In this document: positions 3,871 through 63,000 of the stretch, piece after piece
Position numbering within the stretch: the stretch's first letter is position 1
Layout of the letters: every line of letters starts with the position of its first letter
DNA from: Fistulifera solaris
Taxonomy: Eukaryota
Assembly: GCA_030295235.1 (NCBI GenBank)
Contig: AP026135.1
Span: 186,001-250,000 of the forward strand
DNA length: 64,000 bases
Direction: 5' to 3'
Notes under the pieces: generated by a model
The model's input: only the letters and a program-made list of their open reading frames with translations
Databases searched by the model: none
Told to the model about the DNA's origin: nothing
Program-made: the position numbers and the translations under genes

Positions 3871-6800
3871 TCATCTCGGGGGCATCGTGTCCGGCTGCGA
3901 GAACGACCAACCCTGGTCGGCTGCCGAAGGGACCAGGGGATCGACCGTCGCGCGGGGAAGTGGGCTGTCCTGAGTGTCTCCCAGAGCCATCGTTCCCCAC
4001 ACGTCCATGCCGGACATGCTAAAGGCCCGACCGTACGATCGGCCACTGTCAGGGGCGGACCGTGCAGGTACAGGAGCATTCGAGGTATGGACGGGTGCGA
4101 CTCCATTACTCACAATGGAGCCATCGCGGGCAATCAGTCCAGCGTTCGTCAGAGCTTGCTCCTGCCTTTGCACCAGCTTCTTCAACTCGGATATTTGTTC
4201 CAGTAAATCATCTGGAGCATCCGTCATGCCGCCCGATTCTTGAGACTTTCTCGCATAGCGAAGGATATCAGAAACCACCACGTCCGCAGATAACGCATTG
4301 TGGTACAGCAACCATGTTTGCAACAGCCGCGGGAGTTGCAGAGCGGCTAGGAGGAACAAAGGAATGAAAATCAAGTGTCCGCAAACAATATCATGAAGCA
4401 TGTAAAAATGTTTGACGAGTTTGACTCCTGCCAATAGGCCAATCTGGCACAAGGCTCCCAAAGCATAGTACGCCGATAAAGCATATCGGACGTAGTTCGA
4501 GTCCTCAAGGAAAAGGGTTACGACACCGGCAATGAGTCCACAAAAATAGCGATTCCTATGGTGCGACGCACGGGATACGGGAAACTTCTCTCACTTGCAA
4601 TGAAGCCCCTCTCTAGTACCAGCAAGGCACCAATGAAGATGAGCACGTTGCCGACGGCAACAATTGGCTTGTTAAGGCTAGCATCGGATCGGAACAAATT
4701 CGATCGACGAATACCTTCGGCGACGAGTAAATACAATGCCGACTTGACGCAGAACATAAGTTTCGATGTGAGTGGAATATTCTTGTAAAAAGCGGTTTCC
4801 TCGTTCCACCACATTGACCAGCTTTTCGCGGCTCCCCCAGAAGGGCATCGCATCCACTTGACCCAGAGCTCGTAGTCGCTTACAACAACACTCCAGTCGA
4901 AAGTAAGGGGATTGAACCAAAATGGACTGCACAAGAAAGAAGCTGACGCAAGCCATAATGACCACGTTCTACCAAAGTATTGCTTCGCCTCCGTATAAAT
5001 ACCCATCAGCACTAAACCAGCCGCCAGCTCTACGCCCAAATAGAGGTGACTTGACGCAAAGAAGCGATACTGTTCGTCAAACGGAGTGTGCTGAGTGACG
5101 AAACCGCGGCCTGTTGGCCTGTACTTCGCGCCGCCGACGAGAATCGTTTGGGCCATGTATGTTGCTTTCGTTTGAATGTGGAACATGAAGTGAAGCGGCC
5201 CTCCGGTAATGAAGATAGAGAACAGCTCCTGAAAGCTAGCGAACCAACCTCGTTCAACTCCGAGCGTCGCAAACAAGGGGATGGTCTGCAACAAACCAAG
5301 GCCACCAAGAAGCATTTGAATGGTTCCCATTGGCGTGATTAGACGATCTCCAATCCTCTCTAGATCGAACACCGCCAGAACTAACATCAAGTACACAACG
5401 ACGTAAACGGTAAAGATCGTAAGAACGTTGCTGAAGTAGTGACCGATTCCCCCGTAGTAGAAAGAAAGCAACCGGCAAAAATCAAGCCGGTTGCACATTC
5501 GGTACACATCTCGTGAAAGACTCTGTTCGGCTGCACCTTGGCTGAGCTTAGCTTCGAACTTGTAAATCTGACTCATTCCTACGTCTCTTCCCTTTCCTAC
5601 TTGAACGTATTCTTTGAAAGCAACAGAGCCTCCTCGAATAACATTATTGTAGCCAGCAAAGATATCTTCCGACAAGTTTATACCTTGTGAAGCCTTGCTA
5701 ATTCCACCTCTCGTTATAAAGAAAAGCTTATCGAAAACGTCAGGGTGACCGTAATGCAAGCGAATGCGAAGAGGTCTAGCGAGAACACGCTGACCCAAAG
5801 AAACAAACGAAATTTCCTGTAAAGCCATGTAATTTGCCAGAGAACTGACGCTGCCCGTAAAAATGTGCTCTCGAAGTCCGAGGATTGTGGTTGGTAGCGG
5901 ACCTTCACGTTTTGCAAACTCCTGTAAGCAGTTCCGCATCTTGAGAGCTTCCTCAAAATAACCTTCTTGATTCATGTCAATAGTTTGGACAAACTCCCCC
6001 CTCGTAAAAAATCATAGCATGATTCTGGTTCTCAGGCTTGCCCTCGCCAATCACGGGATTTCCTGGCAAGCGAACGCGATAAATTTCTTGGATCTTGCCT
6101 TTACCATTGCTCTTCACCAGCACCGAATAGAAGACCGACGCTCCTGACCGGTTGATTCTTATGCTGTCGATATACGCCACCCGAAGATGTGGAAAGCGGT
6201 GCATTAGGCTGTCTATGTCGTCTGCTTTCGGATCTTGATTTCTCTTCATCTGCCCATAAATCTGGCATGTAACAACGTATCCGAACTTCTCACCGAGGAG
6301 ATCATTTGTAGTGTGGTCATCGATTCTTTCAAGATTTGCGAGGAGCCTGAGTGCCTTTTCACAATACATCATCCCAGTTACTGTTCTTGTGAGTGTTTGG
6401 GCTCGAATACTAGCCCATCGTCGTGTCTCATCGATGTATTTTGGCTGCCAAACTTTTTCTTCCTCTTTCACTCCCAGTCTCTCTAAAAAGTTATTCCAAT
6501 CAGAACGATACAACGTCTGAAGATAAAGAAGCGTCGAAACACCAAGAGCGTCAGTTCGCCGTTCTAAATCGGCTTTGCTATAAAGAACGTCCTCAGAGTA
6601 AAAGGGGGTCAACACATTCCATGAAAACATGTCATGAATTGATGGAGCATCAGGCATATCCATGAAAAGGGAGTTAACGAAGAAAGTGAGGCGGCGGCGG
6701 GCTTCTTTTGACTTGGGTTCTGCATCATCCGGATGCATACACACGAGGCCATAAAGCTTCTTTAAAACTCCTTTGAAAGTTTCATTCTTTGATATGTCAT

Positions 6801-9800
6801 CAAGCTGAGAGGACGCATAGTAGTCATCCCAAAAGAATCCATTCTCCATACTTCCTAGAAAGGTGAGGCGGTCAAGGACGTCCCTTCCATCGGAATCCAC
6901 AGCCGTGTTCTTCAATATTGCTTTCAGTCCATGTGTTACATTGCGCAACTTGTCTCTAACTTGATCACGAACAGCATCCACAATGACCACAGTTTCTTCG
7001 ATTGCTGCTACCTGGGGCACCTCCCTTGCCTTGTTATCTGTGTCTAGGGTAGTAAGTGATCCTGCGCTGACCACTCTTCGAACACCGGGTGTACTAGGTT
7101 TCGGCTTGGTCTCTTTGCTACGCACACCTGAGTCTTTTCCTCTTGCAAGAGGTGAGCGTTTCTTCATGCCTTTTTCGAGAATACTTACGAGCTCTACAAA
7201 AGGAGTAAAGACAATTTTGATCTTTTCAAGCTTCATGTGGGCGGTGATCTCCTCATTCTCTGTCCATTTGTTAACCATGGCTAGAATTCCTTGAACATCC
7301 TTCGCGTGCACAGGCCCCATAATCTTAGCGAAAAGAAAAGAACCGAGTTCCCAAACTTCGGCGACCGCGGTCTGCATAGTCACATGGTCGGTTATTGGCT
7401 TGAAGAAAGATGCATCAGTGTAGGCCCCAGTCCTCGGATTTGTGTATTCATCCGCCGGCCGTTGAAGCTCGGCCATGACGTCGTCAATCACACCTGCCGT
7501 CTGGAAAACAGGCAGATAGATTGCCTGACTGAAACCGTCAAACTGGCTGAACTTGAGGTTATCGCTTTCAGTGTTGGAAATGATATCTTCTTCTCTGAAA
7601 TGGTCTATAATTTCATTCCATACAGCACTGAACATAACCCACTTTTGAATTCGAACATCGAGAAGGCGATTGACATAGCTCTGCAGCTTATGTGGATCAC
7701 TACCAAGTAATGACGTTCCTTCTGAGATATTGTTTCCTGAACCAAGAAAGCTGGCGGATGAGCCTCTACGACTACCAGCATCCGAGGACAGCATCTTTTT
7801 ACAAAAATGTTCCGGAGCACGGCCAAAATTATTTCGAATATCATCGATAGATCGGACGTCTCCCAAGTGATCGGAAAACCCGACTGAAGTACCTGCAAAC
7901 GCCTGCCATGCAGCGTACCAGATGCTCATGTCGATCAGATAAACAATGAATTGAGGTAGCCACCTCATACTCAGCAGCAGAAACATTTTTGCAAAGCTTT
8001 GGTCGGGATAATTGACATAGTCGTCTGCAGAGTTGCAACGATGGTAGCACCATCGAATTAACCTCAAAAACGTAGGAGAAGAAAAGTTTCCAAGCCATGA
8101 GCGTTACCCAAAAGGTAACATAAACGATCGTGTGTCGAAAGGATTCGTGTACTTCCTTTCCGACATACAGGCGGCTCAAAGGATACAGGATGTTTAAAAA
8201 GGATTGAACGTAGTCATTCTGGCTCGTGTAAATCCGTGTAGACAGTGATGGCACGATCTGGACAAACGTCTCTACAACGTAGGGGATCATGACAATGAGC
8301 GAAAGCCAAATGTACTGCCACCACCAGAAAACTGGCTCTGCCTCTATTCCCAAGTATACACCTTTCTGCGGGGAAAATGCCCACATTAAGTAGAGCGTCT
8401 GGTAGACAAGAGTTAAAAAGCGGGCGACAATTATGAATACCGAGCCGCATACAGCAGTTCCTGACAGCTGAATGCCCGGATAGATCGCCCATACTTCCAG
8501 TAAAGCCCACGTGAGATGAAGAGCGTTGAAAAGCCAAAAGACTCCGCTTGCAACCTGCAATGAGTATACCCAGCCCCAAACGAGTTCACGAGCAAAAGCT
8601 GCCGCCGCGAGCAGGTAGAATGTTACAATGTGCCACTCCAAAATACGACTCAGCGCCATGATGCCGCGCAACCACGATCTCTTCTCCAAGAATGTTTTCG
8701 GAGAGGCTGCCAGTCCTTCAGCAACCGGCATGATGGTTTCGCCAGGAAGAGGACCATAATTGGACCCAAACTCTTCCATATCATTCGGGTCAGGTTTAAA
8801 CGATGAGTAATGATATTGAAGACACTCTCTGGACCAAAAGAATTCGTTGAAGTCATCATAGTTCTTTCTTTCATCGTGGTCCGCTTTCGATTTCATATTC
8901 TAATAAAAAACCAGATGTATGAGGTGACGTGCCTTCGACAAGACAGAATCGTCAAAAACGCGCTCACGTACCTGTTCGACGACCTCGAAAATCGGAGTGA
9001 CCACATAATCCATAAAATGGCCAGCATATAGACTCCGCGTCTGTGTATATCCTTCACTCTGAATATGTTCTTCCATCATTTTGTGGTAAAGAAACCACAC
9101 ACATTCCGACATGTGACGCAGATTGGCGCCTTCGCCCCAGATGCAAAAGAAGAGGACGAGATCCACGACACGGCTCGCCACCGCCGGCGGTGCATTCATC
9201 GACGTGTTCAATTTCGAAAAATGCGGCGCCACTCCCATGGCACGGCACCACTTGACGTAGTTCGAAAAGACTTTGGCGTGCAACGCATGAATGGGACTTG
9301 GTGGCTGTACCGACGGAGGCAAAATATGACTACTCATGTATCGGCGGTTATTGCTGAGAAGAATCAACAGATGCTCGGCTTGGTTCCGTACCGAACTATC
9401 CTGAAATCCAAAAAAGTTTCCCAAATCTTCGCAAGCCGAGTAGACCATGTTAGCATATTCCGCTAAACGAGGAGGCAGATCCGCTGGATTGAACATGTTG
9501 AAAACGTCCAACGATTCCGGTGGTGGATTGGGCGTATACGACGGTTTGGTCGAAGAACCATTCCGATCGCTATTCTCTTCTTTGGTGGGAATGGGCGTAT
9601 AACCGGTTCGGAATGCCGACCATAGATTCAACGACTCGTAATGTCCGTCCCGATACGCGGCGGAAGCTGCCACCAACAACGCCGCGGCAATCCACAAACA
9701 GCCCAGAAAAATCCGTTTCTCGGGAGTAAGCTCTGCCAAATAAATGGAATCTGTTTCACTGGGATTGTAAGGATGCCCTTTGGCCACGTCTTTGAGAAAG

Positions 9801-10510
9801 GGAAGCATCGGTTTGACTACCAAAGCCGCCGCGAAAGCACCTCCTGCCAGACAAGTTGCCATGGTGGCAAATACTTTGGTACGGCCACTAAAAACACAAT
9901 AGCAATCATCATTAACATGTCTGTGAGAGTCACCTACAATATATGCGCACTGACACACACACACACACGAAACCAACTTACTGCGCCGCCAGGAACGAGA
10001 ATGCGAGTGCCAAAGCACCCCCAAGAAGGGAAAGAGCATGGCTTGAGGGAGATTTAAAAACGCCGCCACCAGCAGAGCGACACTAGTCCCTAAACAAATT
10101 CCGGAAAAGAACGATGGCAATAAGACGCCGAGTGACATGCCGACGCATCCTCCCATCAGGGTGAGAATGTTCAAGAAGGCCATGGAAGTATCGGAATGAA
10201 CCGGAAGGAAAAGTGGTTCCAGGAATGTGTAAACCAAAAACGCCGAAACAAGCGCGGAAAGAATTCCGGAAAATAATCTCGGTTTTCTAAAGGTTGAACG
10301 ATGAGATAAGAGATTAGAAAAAGACAAAGAACCAACACACATATTCTCTCAATCACTAACTTACGAAGGGGCATTGGAACTAAACCATACGACCGCTAAA
10401 GCAGTAGCCAGTCGTATGGCTGGATAACCATAAACTGCCGCTTCTTCTGTCCATTGATGGTGGTGCTTCGATAAAACCGTGTCAGTGTCGAGGTCCACCG
10501 TCGACGACAT
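3871..10510 (-). CDS. 1,3-beta-glucan (callose/chrysolaminarin) synthase, GT48; introns about 10287-10364, 9888-9981 and 8900-8971; 1-nt frameshifts near 10020, 8025, 6008 and 4540
   Basis: FKS/callose synthase motifs across consecutive ORFs: FGFQDSSVRNQAEHL, WGEGANLRHMSE, YDDFNEFFWS, EARRRLTFFVNSL, GEGKPENQNHA, DMNQEGYFEEALKMRN, HYGHPD, INLSEDIFAG, GKGRDVG. The start MSSTVDLD (ATG at 10510) joins by a GT-AG intron. Confidence 0.93.
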
Positions 10511-45851: not shown

Positions 45852-46590
45852 TGTGAATTCAATTGATACTGTATGCAAAGGATAATAGATGATATGTACA
45901 AACAATGATAGCAAGAGAAAATACTCGGAGTACCTGGGAATGTGTGGTTCTCACATTCTTGCTCACATTTACGCAAGCGACGAGCCGAGCGACGATACCA
46001 GTAGTGAGGGAAGGAAAAAGGAATTGGCGAGGATCCATGACTCGTCTGGCTTTCGTCAGACAAAGTGGGACTGAGGCCAGCGAATCATCGCAAACACGTT
46101 TCTTACTTATTTTCCTGTGTGACATTACGGTACCGGTACCGCAATGGAGATTGGGGCCAAGAAAGAATACGCGCGCGTGCACCTTACCTGGTACGATTTT
46201 TTTTTTGTTTATTTTTTACTTTTTACTTGTTCTGATGCCGATGATCTAGTTTTCAAAGAAGAGGACTCCCACACCGTAACATAATCCATTAACAACTCCG
46301 ACGTATAATTTGTTTTGCACACTATGTGGGGATAACGGAAGGACTCCCACGAGATCGTACAATCATCATCGGGAATAGAATACTGACTGGTAGCGCTTGA
46401 ACAGTTTATGTCCTCCGTATGCGAACGTCAGACAAATAATTGAGACGGCAGTTGCTCTTGGTGTCTTGGTGTAGAATATATTTGACTACGTAAGAACGTA
46501 GGCACGAAAAACATTTGACAATCTATCGACTGAGCTGTATACTACCAGTAAGGATATTCACTTTGGGCGATATGGCCTTTGTTAAAAGCA

Positions 46591-47855
46591 ACAACAACTC
46601 CCACCATTTGTGATTCAATTTAGACATGCAGGCGTAGCTTTCAACAGGAGATGAGTATCTAGTGCTGGAAAAGAATACGATTAGTAGAGGCCCAACCGAT
46701 TTGCGATGTCTAAAATGAAGAGGAATGAAACAAAGTTCATGTGCTCACAATTTCGTTTCGGTCCAACTTTCGATCGGCCCTTCCCTTGCTTTCTGTATCT
46801 ATCCAGTCGCTTTACCAGTCTCGCTTTTCTATCTTTGATCATGCAACTCTCTGCTGCTTTGATGTCCCTTCTTTCTTCCACGGTGGAACCGACTACCGCT
46901 CCCATTGCCATTGGTCTTCAGTGCGGTAACGTCCACTTGCATCAACTCAGTGCACCTGCCCAGCAGTTGGTCGCACAGGCCTTGCAAGATTCCTTCCAAA
47001 CGTCGTACAAGTTGCATGACAAGGGTGATTCGTTCCTCGCGGATGTTCAGTTCGATCAGTCGCATGCCACGAAAGAATCTCTCAAGTGGAACGGAACTTG
47101 GAACTACGGTTGCCGTTTGTGCCCCAACGATGATGATTCGACCTTATCGGCTCCGTTTGCTGCGTTTGTCGCCGATCTGGATTGCACCAACTGTGCTCCC
47201 ACGTCCATGGCCGGTGTCCGTGCCTGGGAGAACGCGTTGACGACGATGCTTCGTGCCACGAATCACGCCGAGTTGAAGAAAGCTACCGCGTGTCAGATCT
47301 CGTTGCACGATCCGGAAGAGACAGTCGTGAATGTGGAGATTGGTGTCAAGTGCGACAACACGGACTTTGCCGGACTGGGTGCGAAAGCGTCGGGCTTTTC
47401 GGCGCGTGCCTTGGAGGATTCCTACAACAAGGTCCATGAGATGCTGGGTGACAACTTCTTGGCGGGTGTCTACTTTGAGAGTGCCCATACGAACCAGAAA
47501 GCGGCGCTCAAGTGGAACGGAACCTGGAATTACGGATGTCGTTTGTGCCCTAATGATGATGACAGCATGCTGACTTCGTTTGTCGGAGGATACGCTGGTC
47601 AGTTCGGATGCAGCCAGTGTCACGAGGAAGGCAAGATGTTGTTCACGAAGGAGACTGCCTTGCACGCGTGGGAAGCCGAGTACACGGCGGCCTTGCTCGA
47701 GAGTCAGTTCGACGAGTTTGTCCACGCCAAGAATTGCAAGATTGATATAGTCCCGGTCGATGCTGGAGTGGTCTTGAAGGCTTGAGTAGCGAGGCCAAAT
47801 TGACGGGAAACATCGTTATTCGGTTGCGCCAGGCACTTTCAAAATACATAAGAAT
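46591..47855. repeat. Left arm of a 1265-bp inverted duplication
   Basis: Reverse complement of 50197-51461 (coordinates sum to 98052). All mirrored ORF-track translations are identical. Confidence 0.95.
46841..47785 (+). CDS. Two-repeat Cys/Asp-motif protein (314 aa from the likely ATG), possibly secreted; copy 1
   Basis: Strong codon bias and two internal repeats of about 145 aa, each containing LKWNGTWNYGCRLCPNDDDS. The hydrophobic N-terminus MQLSAALMSLLS is weak. Confidence 0.85.
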   Translation: MQLSAALMSLLSSTVEPTTAPIAIGLQCGNVHLHQLSAPAQQLVAQALQDSFQTSYKLHDKGDSFLADVQFDQSHATKESLKWNGTWNYGCRLCPNDDDSTLSAPFAAFVADLDCTNCAPTSMAGVRAWENALTTMLRATNHAELKKATACQISLHDPEETVVNVEIGVKCDNTDFAGLGAKASGFSARALEDSYNKVHEMLGDNFLAGVYFESAHTNQKAALKWNGTWNYGCRLCPNDDDSMLTSFVGGYAGQFGCSQCHEEGKMLFTKETALHAWEAEYTAALLESQFDEFVHAKNCKIDIVPVDAGVVLKA

Positions 47856-47988
47856 CTATATTATTTATATCATCTTCGGGTTGTCGTTTTGCAGATTAGG
47901 ATGCTTGACCTCGCACTTTTATGCAAACAAAGATTGTTTATGATTTGTCATTCCATTGATAAACGGCATTCTACTTCTGCTTATTCTT

Positions 47989-49525
47989 TTATCGTGACCC
48001 ATTGTCAAATTCTGTTTTCGCTTGACTCAATGCGTCGAAGATTCGTTTCGCCAAAAACCGCTTGTCCGCATCGAGATGATGCGTTTTATCCGGATGGACC
48101 ACACGCGACGCCTTGTGAAAAAACTTCTTCAACTTGCTGTCATCTAAAACATCCCCAATACTAATCGGCTTCCAATCCGCCCCCGGCCACAAGATCGTGT
48201 GCAAAGACGCCAAAAGAGCCCGCAGTTGCTTCTTCTTGCCGTGCTCTTCACTCCAGGCCTTGATGGTGGGTTCTAACTTTTGCGAACCATGTCTTCTTCG
48301 GCCTCGGCCGCCTTCTTTTTCTGTTCGCGATCACGAATTTCTTGCAAGGCTTTTTCTTGTGATTCGCGCATTTCGTTGACACGCTGGTGCACAGCGGCCT
48401 GTACCGTCGCCGATTTTCCAATCGCATTGGCGGGATCCAAGGAAATACCGACTTCTTTCTTCTTGGGAGGCAGATTGTTACTTCCCGGTGGTTCCGACAC
48501 TGAAGTTTGAAGACTACCGCTACTCGTAGTTCGTGGATCTACTTCAACCCACCGCTGATCAATTTCATCCCAGACACGGTTCGCTTTCTGATTCTTTTGT
48601 GCATACTCTCGCTTCAAACGTTCGGCACGACTTTCGTTCATGGACGCCGGTGAGGACTGCGAATGATGCAGGGGACGACGTGCAGGGGGGAGCACTACTG
48701 GGCGGTCCAAAGTCCATGAGGGAGGCTTCTGGTTGTCGGGGTGGCGGTGGTGTCACGCGGGCGGCGGCTGGCGGAGGTCGACTGGCTGGTGCGGGTGGTG
48801 CCGCGACTCGCTGTCCTTGCGAAGGCGCTGGCATATTAGGCCGCGAACTGCGGGGTTGCGGTGGAGGTGCCGACGCCTTGTGACCTGGACCTCGACCATT
48901 CGGGTGTTTGGCCGAGAATTCATCGTGTAATTTGACCAGATCGAGTAATTTGAATGCAACTATGGGCACTGGTGGTCCTTCCTCGCCACCCAGATCTCCC
49001 GTTACGGCCTGAGACATGGCTTTCCCCAACGATTGAAAGGCACCTCGTGCCGCCTTCGCTGGATTCGAATGTTCGTGTTCTTTATGAGGAGCAAACAATT
49101 TTGAGAGACGATATTGCGATGCCTGTTTGATAGGAAGCTTGGCATTTTCGTCCTGAATATCCCACCAACTAAAGGTCGGCCCATCCGAAGTAGTGGGTTC
49201 GCCCGGAACTGGCTTGTCCTCGACGCAGACGCGCCAGTGATATCCATCGGGTCCCAAATGACTCAATCCTCGCAAAGCAGCGCAATTTCTTGTTTTAAAA
49301 CAGTGTCGAGAGAAAGAGGAGAGAAAGGAATGGACCATTAATGAGAAGCGACAGAAGACGTTGAAATAAAACAGAAAAGACTCACTGTTTGACACTGGCC
49401 AAGGTCAGTCCTTTCGGACCGGACACGTTCATCGTGAACGCATTGAAAAGTGAATCACACGAGTCGGATTCGGAATTCACAATCGTGTAAAGCACGACGA
49501 CCTTATTGCCTCCATTTGCTGACAT
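47989..49525 (-). CDS. Auxilin-like J-domain protein; intron about 49289-49385; frameshifts near 48690 and 48275
   Basis: C-terminal LRALLASLHTILW..WKPI..DV..LKKFFHKASRVVHPDK..AKRIFDALSQA is an auxilin/Swa2-type J domain, preceded by a Pro-rich linker. Confidence 0.88.
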
Positions 49526-50196: not shown

Positions 50197-51461
50197 ATTC
50201 TTATGTATTTTGAAAGTGCCTGGCGCAACCGAATAACGATGTTTCCCGTCAATTTGGCCTCGCTACTCAAGCCTTCAAGACCACTCCAGCATCGACCGGG
50301 ACTATATCAATCTTGCAATTCTTGGCGTGGACAAACTCGTCGAACTGACTCTCGAGCAAGGCCGCCGTGTACTCGGCTTCCCACGCGTGCAAGGCAGTCT
50401 CCTTCGTGAACAACATCTTGCCTTCCTCGTGACACTGGCTGCATCCGAACTGACCAGCGTATCCTCCGACAAACGAAGTCAGCATGCTGTCATCATCATT
50501 AGGGCACAAACGACATCCGTAATTCCAGGTTCCGTTCCACTTGAGCGCCGCTTTCTGGTTCGTATGGGCACTCTCAAAGTAGACACCCGCCAAGAAGTTG
50601 TCACCCAGCATCTCATGGACCTTGTTGTAGGAATCCTCCAAGGCACGCGCCGAAAAGCCCGACGCTTTCGCACCCAGTCCGGCAAAGTCCGTGTTGTCGC
50701 ACTTGACACCAATCTCCACATTCACGACTGTCTCTTCCGGATCGTGCAACGAGATCTGACACGCGGTAGCTTTCTTCAACTCGGCGTGATTCGTGGCACG
50801 AAGCATCGTCGTCAACGCGTTCTCCCAGGCACGGACACCGGCCATGGACGTGGGAGCACAGTTGGTGCAATCCAGATCGGCGACAAACGCAGCAAACGGA
50901 GCCGATAAGGTCGAATCATCATCGTTGGGGCACAAACGGCAACCGTAGTTCCAAGTTCCGTTCCACTTGAGAGATTCTTTCGTGGCATGCGACTGATCGA
51001 ACTGAACATCCGCGAGGAACGAATCACCCTTGTCATGCAACTTGTACGACGTTTGGAAGGAATCTTGCAAGGCCTGTGCGACCAACTGCTGGGCAGGTGC
51101 ACTGAGTTGATGCAAGTGGACGTTACCGCACTGAAGACCAATGGCAATGGGAGCGGTAGTCGGTTCCACCGTGGAAGAAAGAAGGGACATCAAAGCAGCA
51201 GAGAGTTGCATGATCAAAGATAGAAAAGCGAGACTGGTAAAGCGACTGGATAGATACAGAAAGCAAGGGAAGGGCCGATCGAAAGTTGGACCGAAACGAA
51301 ATTGTGAGCACATGAACTTTGTTTCATTCCTCTTCATTTTAGACATCGCAAATCGGTTGGGCCTCTACTAATCGTATTCTTTTCCAGCACTAGATACTCA
51401 TCTCCTGTTGAAAGCTACGCCTGCATGTCTAAATTGAATCACAAATGGTGGGAGTTGTTGT
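50197..51461. repeat. Right arm of the 1265-bp inverted duplication
   Basis: Reverse complement of 46591-47855. Confidence 0.95.
50267..51211 (-). CDS. Two-repeat Cys/Asp-motif protein; copy 2, identical to 46841-47785
   Basis: Identical translation in the ORF track. Confidence 0.85.
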   Translation of the reverse strand: MQLSAALMSLLSSTVEPTTAPIAIGLQCGNVHLHQLSAPAQQLVAQALQDSFQTSYKLHDKGDSFLADVQFDQSHATKESLKWNGTWNYGCRLCPNDDDSTLSAPFAAFVADLDCTNCAPTSMAGVRAWENALTTMLRATNHAELKKATACQISLHDPEETVVNVEIGVKCDNTDFAGLGAKASGFSARALEDSYNKVHEMLGDNFLAGVYFESAHTNQKAALKWNGTWNYGCRLCPNDDDSMLTSFVGGYAGQFGCSQCHEEGKMLFTKETALHAWEAEYTAALLESQFDEFVHAKNCKIDIVPVDAGVVLKA

Positions 51462-60086: not shown

Positions 60087-63000
60087 ATTCACACTATCTG
60101 GTACAGTCTTTGCAGTTGTTTGATACACGTGCCCTACTTACTCCTCTTTTGTCGCCTTTCGTTATTCGCGATATGTCTTCCGATAGCGAAACTGATGACA
60201 GGAAACCTCCTCCGGTGACCGCCGGTACTCGCCTCGCAGTTTCACCAAGCGCAAAAGTCGAAAAGGATGTTCAGGCCACTTTTCCGAGCCCGTTCTCGCG
60301 CCAAAGTTCGGCCTTGTTCAAGGTTCTATCCCAGCTATTGGTGGTCCTCCGGATGCAAACTTTACTCGCAGTGTTAACCTTGTGCCTGCGACGCCCTACT
60401 GCTTCCGAGATCCGAATCCTTATCAGCGCTGAGAAAAGTTTTAAGGATCGCATCGCCGGTCTCGACCCCAAGTTCAGTCCTACTGCGAATGACTACCGCC
60501 TTGTTGAGCTCGCTGGATGAAGCGCTCAACCATTGTATTACGCATGGTCTCGAGCACGCCGTTCTACATGAATGATCCTGCTGATCTCAGTCGTGTCATC
60601 GATCTCTTCGTGTACCATGGCAAGTTCACTTTCGACGGTCGCCAAGCATCTCGAAGACATGATCAAGTCCGGTGTCTTTGATCAGTACATGATCAACTCG
60701 CTAAGCGATTCGGCTGCTTTTCTGCTCAACTCGTTGGAGCTCCTTCCAGCGCATTCGTACTTCCTTGAGTTCCGGCCATGCGCGCTTTGGCCCTTTGGTT
60801 TGGATGAAAATCACCGAAGAAGTTCTTCCCAACGATTTCGGCCGTTGTCTCAGAGCTCGGAGAAGAGTTCACCAAGCGCACGTTGGTTGAAACTCCCGGT
60901 GAGAATGTTGCTGCTTGGGGCGAATGCGCAGATGGAGACTTTGCAGGAGTTGGAAGCTAATGACCAGCTCCCTCGCGACCACTTGATTATTTTGCAGCAG
61001 CAGCTGTGCAAATGTTCGGTCGGCTGCCCGTGTTCACTGGCACACGGTTAGCATCTCTCTCCGACTTTGTGCCGTCTCTCTGCCGGAAAGTCGAAGGAAG
61101 TTGCTGAAAGGATGAGCGGTTATACAAACTATCGCCGCATTCTCCATGAAGCTAAAGATTTCTACAGCACCCTTAAGGACGATTGGGGACCGGCTAAAGG
61201 AGTTGCTACTGATGTTAGTGCTAATACTGCGGCTATCAAGAGTCTCAAAGCCGAAGTTCAAGACCCTCAAGTCGAAATTCGAGTCGAACGGCACTAAAAC
61301 TGCCTCCCTCGAAGACCAAGGACAAGAAGGCGAACAAAGACAAGGCTGCTCCGAAGGCTGGCGGTGGTGATGGCGACAAGAAAAGCGGTGGTTCGACCGA
61401 AACTCGTTGGACTCGCATCGCCGAAGGACGGGCGAGCCCACCACCATGACCAAGTACGGCAAGACTTTCTATTATTGGCGCCCAAGTGCAAGCGTTGGAA
61501 CCAGACTCATGGAACCGACGAGCACAAGAGCAAAGAAGAGAAGCCCGCTGATGTTAAGCCCGCCCTCCTGCCGCTAATGTTGCTCAAGCTTGGACGGCAC
61601 CCTTGCAGTTCTGTTGGGGTTCCGACAGCGATTCGAATAGGAAATCGGCAGGGAAGGTGAACCTTCGATCGAGGTCCCTTCCTGAGCCTTTTGTCCATAT
61701 TTATCGGTCGTTTATTGTTGGAGCTTTTGCCGAAGCATTTTATTCTTTGCTGGTTGATTGTGGAGTGCTTTTCTTGGTGGCGTCATTTCCGTGTTGCTGC
61801 GACCATCTCGAAGTGGTTGCGTGCCCAAAGTGCCGCCCTCATCGTCGCTCTCTTGGTCTTCGGCCGCGATTCACGCCTTTGCCCGAGCGTCTCATCTCTC
61901 TCCCGTGTCGTTTCATGGTGCTTTCTTCGATCATGACGAGCATGTGGCGAGTGACGCTTACGCCGGCGCCCCCCGGTGTTGTTTATGGAGTCAACTTGGT
62001 GCCCGCCCTGGCATGGCTGCTACCAGTTTCATCCAAGTGATCGCAGCCGACGTTTGCCGACCTCCTGATCCTTCTTCATCTTCAAACGATTCGTCTTGTC
62101 AGCATGGTGAGGATGGTGTTTTTCGGCGTCGCAAGCAAAATCGTTTTGTCGGAAACTGCGAGAGGAGCAAACGCCGTCGAAGACTTCAAGCGATTCCTCG
62201 TTGGGCCTTGGAGCTTCCGGATATGATTGACAGCAATGGCCATTTGTGTACCGAGTCTTTAGATTTATCGTGTCCGCCGAACGGGCATCCTAAGCCTTGG
62301 AACCTACTGGACGACTCTCTTCTGTTTTGCTATCCCACTGGGCATTTCTTTCCAGAGGGAGCTGCTAGTGAAAGTGAGACGATGTTGCTTCGAGAGGGAG
62401 ATAATAGTGTAGACAACTCTAAAGCCTACTTTGCACCGTACGCGAAGCTGCCCCCGTCTATTTATGCCCTCCCTGCTTTGCATCAAGTGCATGTCGCTGG
62501 AAAGCCTACCATGGCGGATCTGTTTCCGGTTATTTGGGATACTGGAGCCACAGTTGCTGTTACTTTCGACCGTGCTGACTTCACGTCCTACACTCCGACT
62601 ACTGGCGATAAAGTTTTGTCTGGCTTTGCTGCAGGTTCTTCGATTGCCGGCACGGGCACTCTTGAGTGGACTGTTACTCTGTCCAACGGCAAGGGCTTTA
62701 CTTTTCGGATCCCTGGGCTACATGTGCCCGATGCCAATGTCCGACTCTTCAGCCCACAGTCCTACTGTCAATTGGTGAAGGCGCAACGTAACGACGAACC
62801 GCGTTTTTCAGGCGACTCGAGCCTCATTCATGTCGATCTGTTGGACGGCCACTTTCTTGATATTGTTTACTCTCCGGAAAACAACTTGCCTACTCTGGAG
62901 ATGTTCCGAAAACAATCTGTTGCTCTCAATGCTGCAAAGATTCAAACTGTGTGACCGCGGCTGAGAATCAAAACTTGAGTGAAGCACAGAAATTTCTTCT

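Follow-up and report, generated by a model that had tools for sequence, protein, structure and literature searches.

The gene and its locus

A gene in a stretch of 64,000 nucleotides from the diatom Fistulifera solaris (contig AP026135.1, positions 186,001 to 250,000; the whole stretch is called the window here) encodes a protein with a hydrophobic leader and two repeats, each carrying the short peptide Cys-Arg-Leu-Cys-Pro-Asn-Asp (CRLCPND), which will be called the core. The protein belongs to a family in which a member from Seminavis robusta contains a heptapeptide with the residues of the sex pheromone SIP+, and the gene from the window is probably a precursor which is processed to a peptide of the same type. 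The positions of its parts are collected in Table 1.

The gene occurs twice, in the two arms of an inverted repeat. There are no nucleotide differences between the two coding sequences, and the arms are 100% identical across 1265 nucleotides; when arms of 1299 nucleotides are compared, all 12 mismatches are located at the outer edge (46561-46590). The first-pass annotation of this DNA had counted a duplicated gene with four cores, which was confirmed, as each of the two identical coding sequences contains CRLCPND twice. In contigs from one public sequencing run the agreement with the window stops at 46582/46591 and at 47855, which are the ends of the identical arms, and different sequence follows; this fits a real repeat with two contexts. 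The complete lack of differences between the arms suggests that they were duplicated very recently or homogenised by gene conversion, or that the assembly plays a part.

Translation is likely to start at 46841, because six homologues (P0004-P0007, P0009 and P0010) begin at the methionine of the sequence MQLSAAL; an alternative upstream ATG at 46706 would extend the protein to 359 amino acids. Upstream of the start codon, 84 nucleotides (46665-46748, with the ends CT..AC) are skipped in one contig of run X2. This contig has 13 mismatches to the window and probably represents a paralogue or homoeologue, and the skip could be an indel in the homoeologous copy or an intron of the antisense strand.

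Table 1. Features of the duplicated gene, in positions of the window
Feature	Position	Strand	Basis or remark
Coding sequence, copy A (P0001), 314 amino acids plus stop, two-repeat secreted precursor-like protein	46841..47785	+	uninterrupted open frame
Coding sequence, copy B, inverted duplicate of copy A	50267..51211	-	nucleotide-identical
Perfect inverted repeat, left arm, 1265 nucleotides	46591..47855	.	right arm 50197-51461, spacer 2341 nucleotides
N-terminal hydrophobic leader MQLSAALMSLLSSTVEPTT, 19 residues, probable signal peptide	46841..46897	+	best mean Kyte-Doolittle value over 9 amino acids 2.12 (heuristic only)
Repeat 1, residues 20-162, predicted ferredoxin-like beta-alpha-beta-beta-alpha-beta scaffold	46898..47326	+	AlphaFold2 model, alignment A3
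Repeat 2, residues 163-314	47327..47782	+	alignment to repeat 1
Conserved 20-amino-acid block 1, LKWNGTWNYGCRLCPNDDDS, residues 81-100	47081..47140	+	strand beta3 (LKWNGTWNY), G, core, acidic tail
Conserved 20-amino-acid block 2, LKWNGTWNYGCRLCPNDDDS, residues 223-242	47507..47566	+	identical to block 1
Core 1, CRLCPND	47111..47131	+	aligns with CALCPPD of the S. robusta homologue
Core 2, CRLCPND	47537..47557	+	within conserved block 2
Second C-x-x-C site of repeat 1, degenerate (CTNCAP), probably the remnant of a second core	47183..47200	+	homologues with fuller cores at this site
Second C-x-x-C site of repeat 2, degenerate (CSQCHEE)	47609..47629	+	alignment with homologues
Cores of copy B, CRLCPND	50921..50941 and 50495..50515	-

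The protein was initially described as two strongly diverged repeats of about 145 amino acids which share an identical block of 20 residues with synonymous differences in 8 of the 20 codons. All of this holds. Outside the block 37 of 120 aligned residues are identical (31%), and the two blocks are spaced by 142 amino acids. Between their 60-nucleotide stretches there are 10 differences, spread over 8 codons, with seven third-position changes and one exchange between the serine codons TCG and AGC, none of which alters a residue. At a background rate of 31% the probability of 20 consecutive identities is about 6e-11. The core is under purifying selection, as the block has been kept between otherwise 31% identical repeats in the face of 10 synonymous differences.

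About 20 residues downstream of the core each repeat contains a second, degenerate site of the type C-x-x-C-x-P/E. Homologues carry GCNICHPDDD (P0006) or GCALCAPD (P0007) at this place, and in other subfamilies two full cores are present per repeat. Judged from these sequences the ancestral repeat probably carried two cores.

A family of secreted repeat proteins in raphid pennate diatoms

The protein was scanned against Pfam and searched for homologues with a word-indexed method, and a profile of 15 members was then compared exhaustively to 1.84 billion representative sequences. Pfam yielded nothing above threshold (VCIP135_N, zf-CHY, Enterotoxin_ST and TB were all far below their cut-offs), and a sequence profile search of the PDB gave no match at E-values up to 1. 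The search with the single protein returned 17 relatives. The closest of these is FisN_30Hu020 from Fistulifera solaris with 95% identity, and FisN_26Hh099, FisN_23Lh007, FisN_5Hu424 and FisN_33Hu058 are further paralogues from the same species. With the profile, 256 clusters were found at E-values up to 1e-3, 101 up to 1e-10 and 32 up to 1e-30. A hidden Markov model of the repeat matched 371 times in 181 proteins, 53 of which contain one repeat, 85 two, 26 three, 16 four and one six. In alignment A1 the sequence G-C-x-x-C is invariant and the residues R, L, P, N, D, D and D are nearly invariant.

A hydrophobic leader, as judged by a Kyte-Doolittle heuristic, is present in 91 of the 96 members with a complete N-terminus, 69 of which start with MK or MR, and the family is therefore secretory. 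All members with a species name are from raphid pennate diatoms of the Bacillariophycidae (Fistulifera solaris, Seminavis robusta and Epithemia clementina).

In P0018, P0020, P0056, P0080, P0087, P0107, P0118 and P0137 a second cysteine ring motif, C-G/A/H-L-R-x(0-3)-C-x-D/E, is found at the extreme C-terminus (e.g., ...CGLRACADA), and this may be another excisable or terminal peptide. Two S. robusta paralogues of the member described in the next section, P0169 and P0170 (the latter being Sro2882_g339270.2), keep the scaffold and have no cysteine core; at its position they show a stretch rich in Gly, Trp and Tyr (GGWDDWYIGLEYYLGG...GGWWGEL) and may encode a different product. P0052 and P0182 carry the JGI label 'ribosomal protein S14' on a family member with seven cores of the type C-x-x-C-G-R-D, which is almost certainly a mis-annotation.

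A Seminavis robusta member encodes the residues of SIP+

The structure of SIP+ was reportedly solved by Klapper et al. in 2023. According to the available part of PMC12843257, SIP+ has the formula C29H45N7O16S3 with [M-H]- at 842.2042, and a b4/y3 fragmentation separates it into two parts. In the N-terminal part Cys, Ala, Leu and Cys form a ring closed by a disulfide, with no order of Ala and Leu stated there. The C-terminal part is acyclic and consists of two trans-4-hydroxyprolines and an L-threo-beta-hydroxyaspartate O-sulfate, the sulfated residue being at the C-terminal end; all residues are L. SIP+ is thus a cyclic heptapeptide with hydroxyproline and a sulfated beta-hydroxyaspartate, as the first-pass annotation had stated, and it shows the order of a C-x-x-C ring, Pro and Asp, namely the ring, Hyp-Hyp (Hyp, hydroxyproline) and the sulfated Asp (PMC12843257).

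Among the proteins found in the profile search is P0071 from S. robusta (E 2.8e-20, three matched stretches), which is annotated as 'expressed unknown protein [Seminavis robusta]' (CAB9524856.1, Sro1596_g284750, UniProt A0A9N8EPF0, 578 amino acids). In each of its three repeats it contains SGCALCPPDDD at the aligned position of the motif. A homologue with the SIP+ backbone, CALCPPD in triplicate, was accordingly found in the very species which makes SIP+, with the reservation on the Ala/Leu order given above. The relation to the protein from the window is not limited to the motif: BLASTP aligned the two with an E-value of 4e-9 over 269 columns which include the helix (AWE.../FE...), the cysteine-bearing last strand and a whole repeat period. 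It is practically certain that the gene from the window and this S. robusta gene belong to the same family.

If CALCPPD is furnished with one disulfide, three oxygen atoms and one SO3, the mass is 843.2085, which is that of C29H45N7O16S3; the calculated [M-H]- is 842.2012 versus the reported 842.2042 (PMC12843257). The heptapeptide CALCPPD occurs in one of 195 proteins, which is P0071, and the Leu-Ala variant occurs in none of the others. Among the 87 distinct cores of the family, Ala is found at the second position in 3, Leu at the third in 44, Pro at the fifth in 35 and Pro at the sixth in 18. From these frequencies a random family member would read Ala, Leu, Pro and Pro at the four positions with a probability of about 0.0015. 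In the Source Data of PMC7335047, as far as available, Sro1596_g284750 is classified as 'Core' in the S. robusta species complex, with a nonsynonymous diversity (piN) of 0.0008, a synonymous diversity (piS) of 0.021 and a piN/piS ratio of 0.038; for three neighbours of the gene the ratio is 0.27-0.54. Taken together, CAB9524856.1 is very probably the precursor of SIP+.

The first-pass annotation knew of no described biosynthetic precursor for SIP+, and this agrees with the literature. How diatoms make their sex pheromones is 'an open topic' according to the available part of PMC12352721 (2025), and the question is likewise treated as open in that of PMC12843257. A literature search, with most subscription journals outside its scope, turned up no paper in which the family, Sro1596_g284750 or a gene for a SIP+ precursor is described. 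The accessible parts of two bioRxiv preprints make no mention of the gene, the motif or a SIP+ precursor, and Sro1596 was not found in six supplement files of PMC8027222, as far as these could be accessed.

How the core evolves

The motif C-x-x-C-x-x-D was surveyed in 168 proteins, 96 of which are core-bearing, with 210 cores and 87 distinct heptapeptides in total. At least two cores are present in 59 of the 168 proteins, and 44 of the 59 carry a single kind of core. To see how cores behave when their scaffolds have diverged, repeat pairs with less than 50% scaffold identity were compared (58 pairs in 25 proteins). With one pair per protein, and the near-duplicates P0177, P0178, P0179, P0180, P0002 and P0088 left out, 19 proteins remained, and the cores were identical in 12 of them. 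At the four variable positions of the core 3.11 of 4 residues match within a protein, versus 1.23 +/- 0.19 when partners are shuffled, a value reached in 0 of 10000 shuffles. The variable residues of the ring are thus kept constant within a protein and change between lineages, as is predicted by selection on the exact peptide, and a structural loop needs no such pattern.

Another finding was that cores have been multiplied without the scaffold. P0093 contains six copies of CQLCPPD and P0153 seven copies of CMLCPPD, 13-30 amino acids apart. P0013 carries six copies of CRLCPND, paired at a distance of about 20 residues, and P0017 four.

The core from the window resembles SIP+ in being a heptapeptide scaffold in which C-R-L-C would form a ring segment of four residues bounded by two cysteines, followed by Pro and by an Asp encoded at position 7, behind which two more Asp follow. 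It differs by Arg in place of Ala and by Asn in place of the second Pro, so that it does not contain the exact set Cys, Ala, Leu, Cys, Pro, Pro and Asp of SIP+, which is matched by P0071. Pro-Pro follows the ring in 18 of the 87 distinct cores of the family, and Pro-Asn in the window. A further difference is that SIP+ is a described compound for which the literature search gave no gene, whereas the product from the window is predicted from a gene.

Predicted fold and position of the core

An AlphaFold model of the full-length protein calculated from 15 sequences was poor, with a predicted local distance difference test score (pLDDT) of 49.8, and was superseded by an AlphaFold2 model of a single repeat (alignment A3, 31 sequences) with a pLDDT of 77.5 and a predicted template modelling score of 0.74. 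In repeat numbering the modelled elements are beta1 (2-10), alpha1 (19-41), beta2 (45-53), beta3 (62-70), a long connection (71-101), alpha2 (102-119) and beta4 (130-137), and the predicted fold of the repeat is a ferredoxin-like beta-alpha-beta-beta-alpha-beta sandwich. In the model LKWNGTWNY forms strand beta3, and G-CRLCPND-DD stands immediately behind it and opens the long connection. The mean pLDDT of this 10-residue block is 50, and residues 84-102 are below 50. Burial of the core in a stable fold would have counted against the first-pass proposal; the core is modelled right after beta3 at the start of the long loop, with a pLDDT of about 45-50, and not as buried.

A Foldseek search of the PDB gave no match at E-values up to 1e-3. 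The top match of VIA-align was 6v55_A (Z 6.8, root mean square deviation 3.2, 89 aligned residues), with a background of about 7-8 stated for the tool, and the SEA domains of MUC16 and TMPRSS were found at Z 5.2-5.9, within this background. In the ESM Atlas no usable match was obtained for the protein from the window, and P0071 had only matches with a TM-score up to 0.26. Because the VIA-align values are at background level, only a generic conclusion is drawn, namely that according to the model the scaffold belongs to the widespread alpha/beta sandwiches and does not include the core.

Weighing the explanations

A number of observations weigh against the view that a SIP-type peptide is processed from the gene in Fistulifera. 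The core from the window has Asn at the position of the second Pro and hence is not SIP+ itself, and for SIP+ the available part of PMC12843257 leaves the Ala/Leu order of the ring unstated. Among the 19 proteins with diverged repeats 7 have non-identical cores. No dibasic (Kex2-type) sites were found flanking any of the 210 cores; the residue preceding the first Cys is Gly in 108 of them and otherwise Asp, His, Asn or Gln, and Asp-Asp follows Asp7 in 147, neither of which is a known processing signal. CRLCPND is found in 15 of the 96 core-bearing proteins, including P0013 and P0017 at only 30-35% identity, and is present in both F. solaris subfamilies. It is not species-specific here, unlike many pheromones, and may simply be ancestral. 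The C-x-x-C and two further cysteines are retained in members without the acidic tail (P0080 and P0087), half of the identical 20-residue block is strand beta3 in the model, and part of the conservation of the core may be structural. The low pLDDT of the loop may stem from the shallow alignments of 15 and 31 sequences and not from exposure. Among the genes of the 64-kb window none was found for a hydroxylase, a sulfotransferase or a protease. Neither a peptide nor a sexual cycle is known from Fistulifera.

Several of these points would be accounted for if the motif served structure or ligand binding in a ferredoxin-like, SEA-like domain which is secreted or located at the cell surface, with the disulfide as a staple and the acidic tail as a possible Ca2+ ligand. 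The protein would then act intact in Fistulifera with no peptide released, and release of a peptide would have been co-opted only in the S. robusta branch or in a few branches. In line with this, the four cysteines per repeat are nearly invariant throughout the family even where the DDD tail is lost, the core directly extends strand beta3 in the model, recognisable cleavage sites are missing, the identical core recurs in highly divergent proteins, and extracellular SEA-type domains come closest in structure, though with Z values of 5.2-6.8 which are not above background. A purely structural loop explains neither the amplification of short cores without their scaffold, up to seven per protein, nor the uniformity of the variable core positions within a protein together with their difference between proteins. 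In addition the loop is not modelled within the fold, and the S. robusta member matches a natural product which is released. This explanation is considered rather unlikely.

C-x-x-C is also a classical redox and metal motif, and a role of the protein as an oxidoreductase or as a carrier of metal (Zn or Fe) could draw on the second C-x-x-C about 20 residues downstream in both repeats and on the sub-threshold Pfam match to zf-CHY (E 0.077, 13.9 bits versus a cut-off of 31.3). The second C-x-x-C is, however, absent in P0008-P0011 and degenerate elsewhere, and the first scaffold cysteine is missing in the subfamily of the S. robusta type, so that there is no conserved site of four cysteines. No Pfam family scored above threshold and no thioredoxin-type Pfam match was seen at E-values up to 10, nor was there a sequence relative in the PDB at E-values up to 1. 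The modelled C-x-x-C is located in the loop after beta3 and not at the N-terminus of a helix; no thioredoxin is among the fold matches listed by Foldseek and VIA-align, which does not exclude one. The two cysteines of SIP+ are disulfide-bonded to each other (PMC12843257, available part). A redox or metal function is considered very improbable.

It is similarly hard to believe that the S. robusta protein agrees with SIP+ by coincidence, with SIP+ being non-ribosomal or made from another precursor and the family having an unrelated function. This idea gains from the fact that the link rests on a match of sequence and formula and not on an experiment, that the Ala/Leu order in the ring is unverified, and that the gene is 'Core' in all resequenced S. 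robusta strains (PMC7335047, available part) while SIP+ is produced by a single mating type (PMC12352721, available part). Regulation can, however, give mating-type specificity. All seven residues agree in kind, in the sole class of orders compatible with the b4/y3 fragmentation, and the heptapeptide stands three times at the hallmark position of the family. The chance of about 0.0015 per family member, the identical formula, and the fact that all residues of SIP+ are L and proteinogenic before modification (PMC12843257, available part) also speak against a coincidence.

On balance the family is most likely a source of SIP-type peptides. For the gene from the window, processing to such a peptide is the favoured interpretation and is held with reasonable, not high, confidence. 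As far as sequence analysis reaches, the proposal of the first-pass annotation that the gene may be a ribosomal precursor or carrier of a signalling peptide is supported.

A proposed route to the peptide

The gene would encode a precursor of the secretory pathway with two cores Cys-Arg-Leu-Cys-Pro-Asn-Asp, each displayed on the loop between beta3 and alpha2 of a ferredoxin-like repeat. The leader would direct the precursor to the endoplasmic reticulum, where the scaffold folds; the conserved cysteines 28 and 151 of repeat 1 probably pair between beta1 and beta4, and the C-x-x-C pair would close on itself into a small disulfide ring as in SIP+. On the exposed loop Pro may then be hydroxylated by a prolyl 4-hydroxylase, and Asp7 may be beta-hydroxylated by an aspartyl beta-hydroxylase and O-sulfated by a sulfotransferase, all of them enzymes of the secretory pathway. 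The heptapeptide could be freed by an endopeptidase, or by exopeptidases which trim the chain as far as the ring on one side and the modified Asp on the other. The release sites would lie between the preceding Gly and the first Cys, and after Asp7, by which the Asp-Asp tail is removed; the choice between an endopeptidase directed to Asp or Asn and trimming by exopeptidases is conjecture. Finally the heptapeptide would be released as a diffusible signal.

The product predicted for the window is Cys-Arg-Leu-Cys (disulfide)-Hyp-Asn-Asp(beta-OSO3H) with a calculated [M-H]- of 928.2605. What the sequences themselves show is the anatomy of the protein, its family, the way in which selection has acted on the core, and the agreement of the S. 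robusta protein with SIP+. Import, each of the modifications, cleavage, secretion and a signalling role in Fistulifera, sexual or other, are what we infer from them.

Relation to known precursors

The precursors of the yeast alpha-factor (MF-alpha1) and of the dikaritins (UstA) consist of a signal peptide followed by several identical short cores and give rise to a secreted peptide, which in the case of the alpha-factor is the mating pheromone. Between the cores of these fungal precursors there are short spacers which contain Lys-Arg sites for Kex2. A leader and identical cores in one polypeptide are also found in the family described here, whereas its cores stand in loops of folded repeats of about 140 amino acids and have no flanking dibasic sites.

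In plants, PawS1 (which harbours SFTI-1 in a seed albumin precursor), the cyclotide precursors and the BURP-domain precursors carry a small disulfide-containing or cyclised peptide, sometimes in several copies, inside a larger folded protein. Release from PawS1 and from the cyclotide precursors occurs at Asn or Asp by asparaginyl endopeptidase; the cores from the window likewise end in Asp or Asn-Asp. The plant carriers differ in that no sequence relation to them was found in Pfam or the PDB, and in that the ring of the diatom family would be a disulfide and not a macrocycle of backbone or side chains. None of the precursors of alpha-factor, dikaritins, PawS1, cyclotides or BURP-domain peptides is known to be related to the diatom family in sequence or fold.

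With SEA-type and other extracellular ferredoxin-like domains (Gpr126, MUC16, TMPRSS6 and PCDH15 MAD12) the modelled repeat would share the beta-alpha-beta-beta-alpha-beta topology and the secreted location. It differs from them by the lack of a Pfam SEA (PF01390) match and by the insertion of 30 residues between beta3 and alpha2, which contains the core and has no counterpart there.

Genomic neighbourhood

A biosynthetic gene cluster around the gene was considered and ruled out, as the neighbours are housekeeping genes and no modifying enzymes are encoded nearby. Besides the genes of the inverted repeat and its spacer, the open reading frames of at least 200 amino acids in the window encode exocyst Sec15, a DHHC palmitoyltransferase, 1,3-beta-glucan synthase, MAP65, V-ATPase, Rpb2 and an E1 dehydrogenase, and further ones an AP-3 beta subunit and a fragment of a retroelement Pol protein. 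This last reading frame (62013-62954, plus strand) matches the beta-barrel domain PF22936 of the retroelement Pol polyprotein with an E-value of 4.3e-6 and 27.4 bits versus a cut-off of 27. The 1,3-beta-glucan synthase (FKS1-like, 4518-10342, minus strand) is read as four consecutive open reading frames, which suggests introns or frame breaks.

A gene on the minus strand (47951-49395) lies in the spacer between the two arms. Towards its C-terminus it shows a weak resemblance to DnaJ (47989-48213, E 8.7e-4), with a score under the Pfam cut-off. Sequence from the locus was found as contigs in four sequencing runs of one study, and no run on record as RNA was listed for it. Two contigs show a run of T ahead of 47951; if the sequencing runs are RNA, this would correspond to the poly(A) tail of a transcript from the minus strand.

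Implications for diatom pheromones

The structure of SIP+ was solved with the help of isotope labelling and at the cost of hundreds of litres of culture. With an S. robusta protein which holds the SIP+ backbone three times, the question of pheromone biosynthesis becomes open to ordinary experiments; the implication is that SIP+ is made ribosomally and modified in the secretory pathway. For the gene from the window a concrete molecule can be predicted. The family described here would add a new protein family and a new lineage to a known kind of system, the ribosomal, multi-core precursors of secreted signalling peptides.

A wider, tentative proposal, which at present seems somewhat less probable than its opposite, is that raphid pennate diatoms in general encode their SIP-type pheromones, whether these act on sex or on the cell cycle, in genes of this family. 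If it is true, the mature pheromone of a species would be readable from its C-x-x-C-x-x-D core, i.e., CALCPPD in S. robusta and CRLCPND in Fistulifera, with CQLCPPD, CMLCPPD, CTLCPPD, CRWCPPD and CELCGPD as further examples from the family. The ferredoxin-like repeat would then be a built-in carrier and a recognition module for prolyl and aspartyl hydroxylation and sulfation, and candidates for other signals, e.g., SIP-, would be found among the paralogues which have no core or a different one, S. robusta Sro2882_g339270 being an example. A gene family of this kind would also allow candidate pheromones of many diatoms to be predicted from sequence and synthesised, including those of oil-producing and bloom-forming species with sexual cycles which are hard to trigger.

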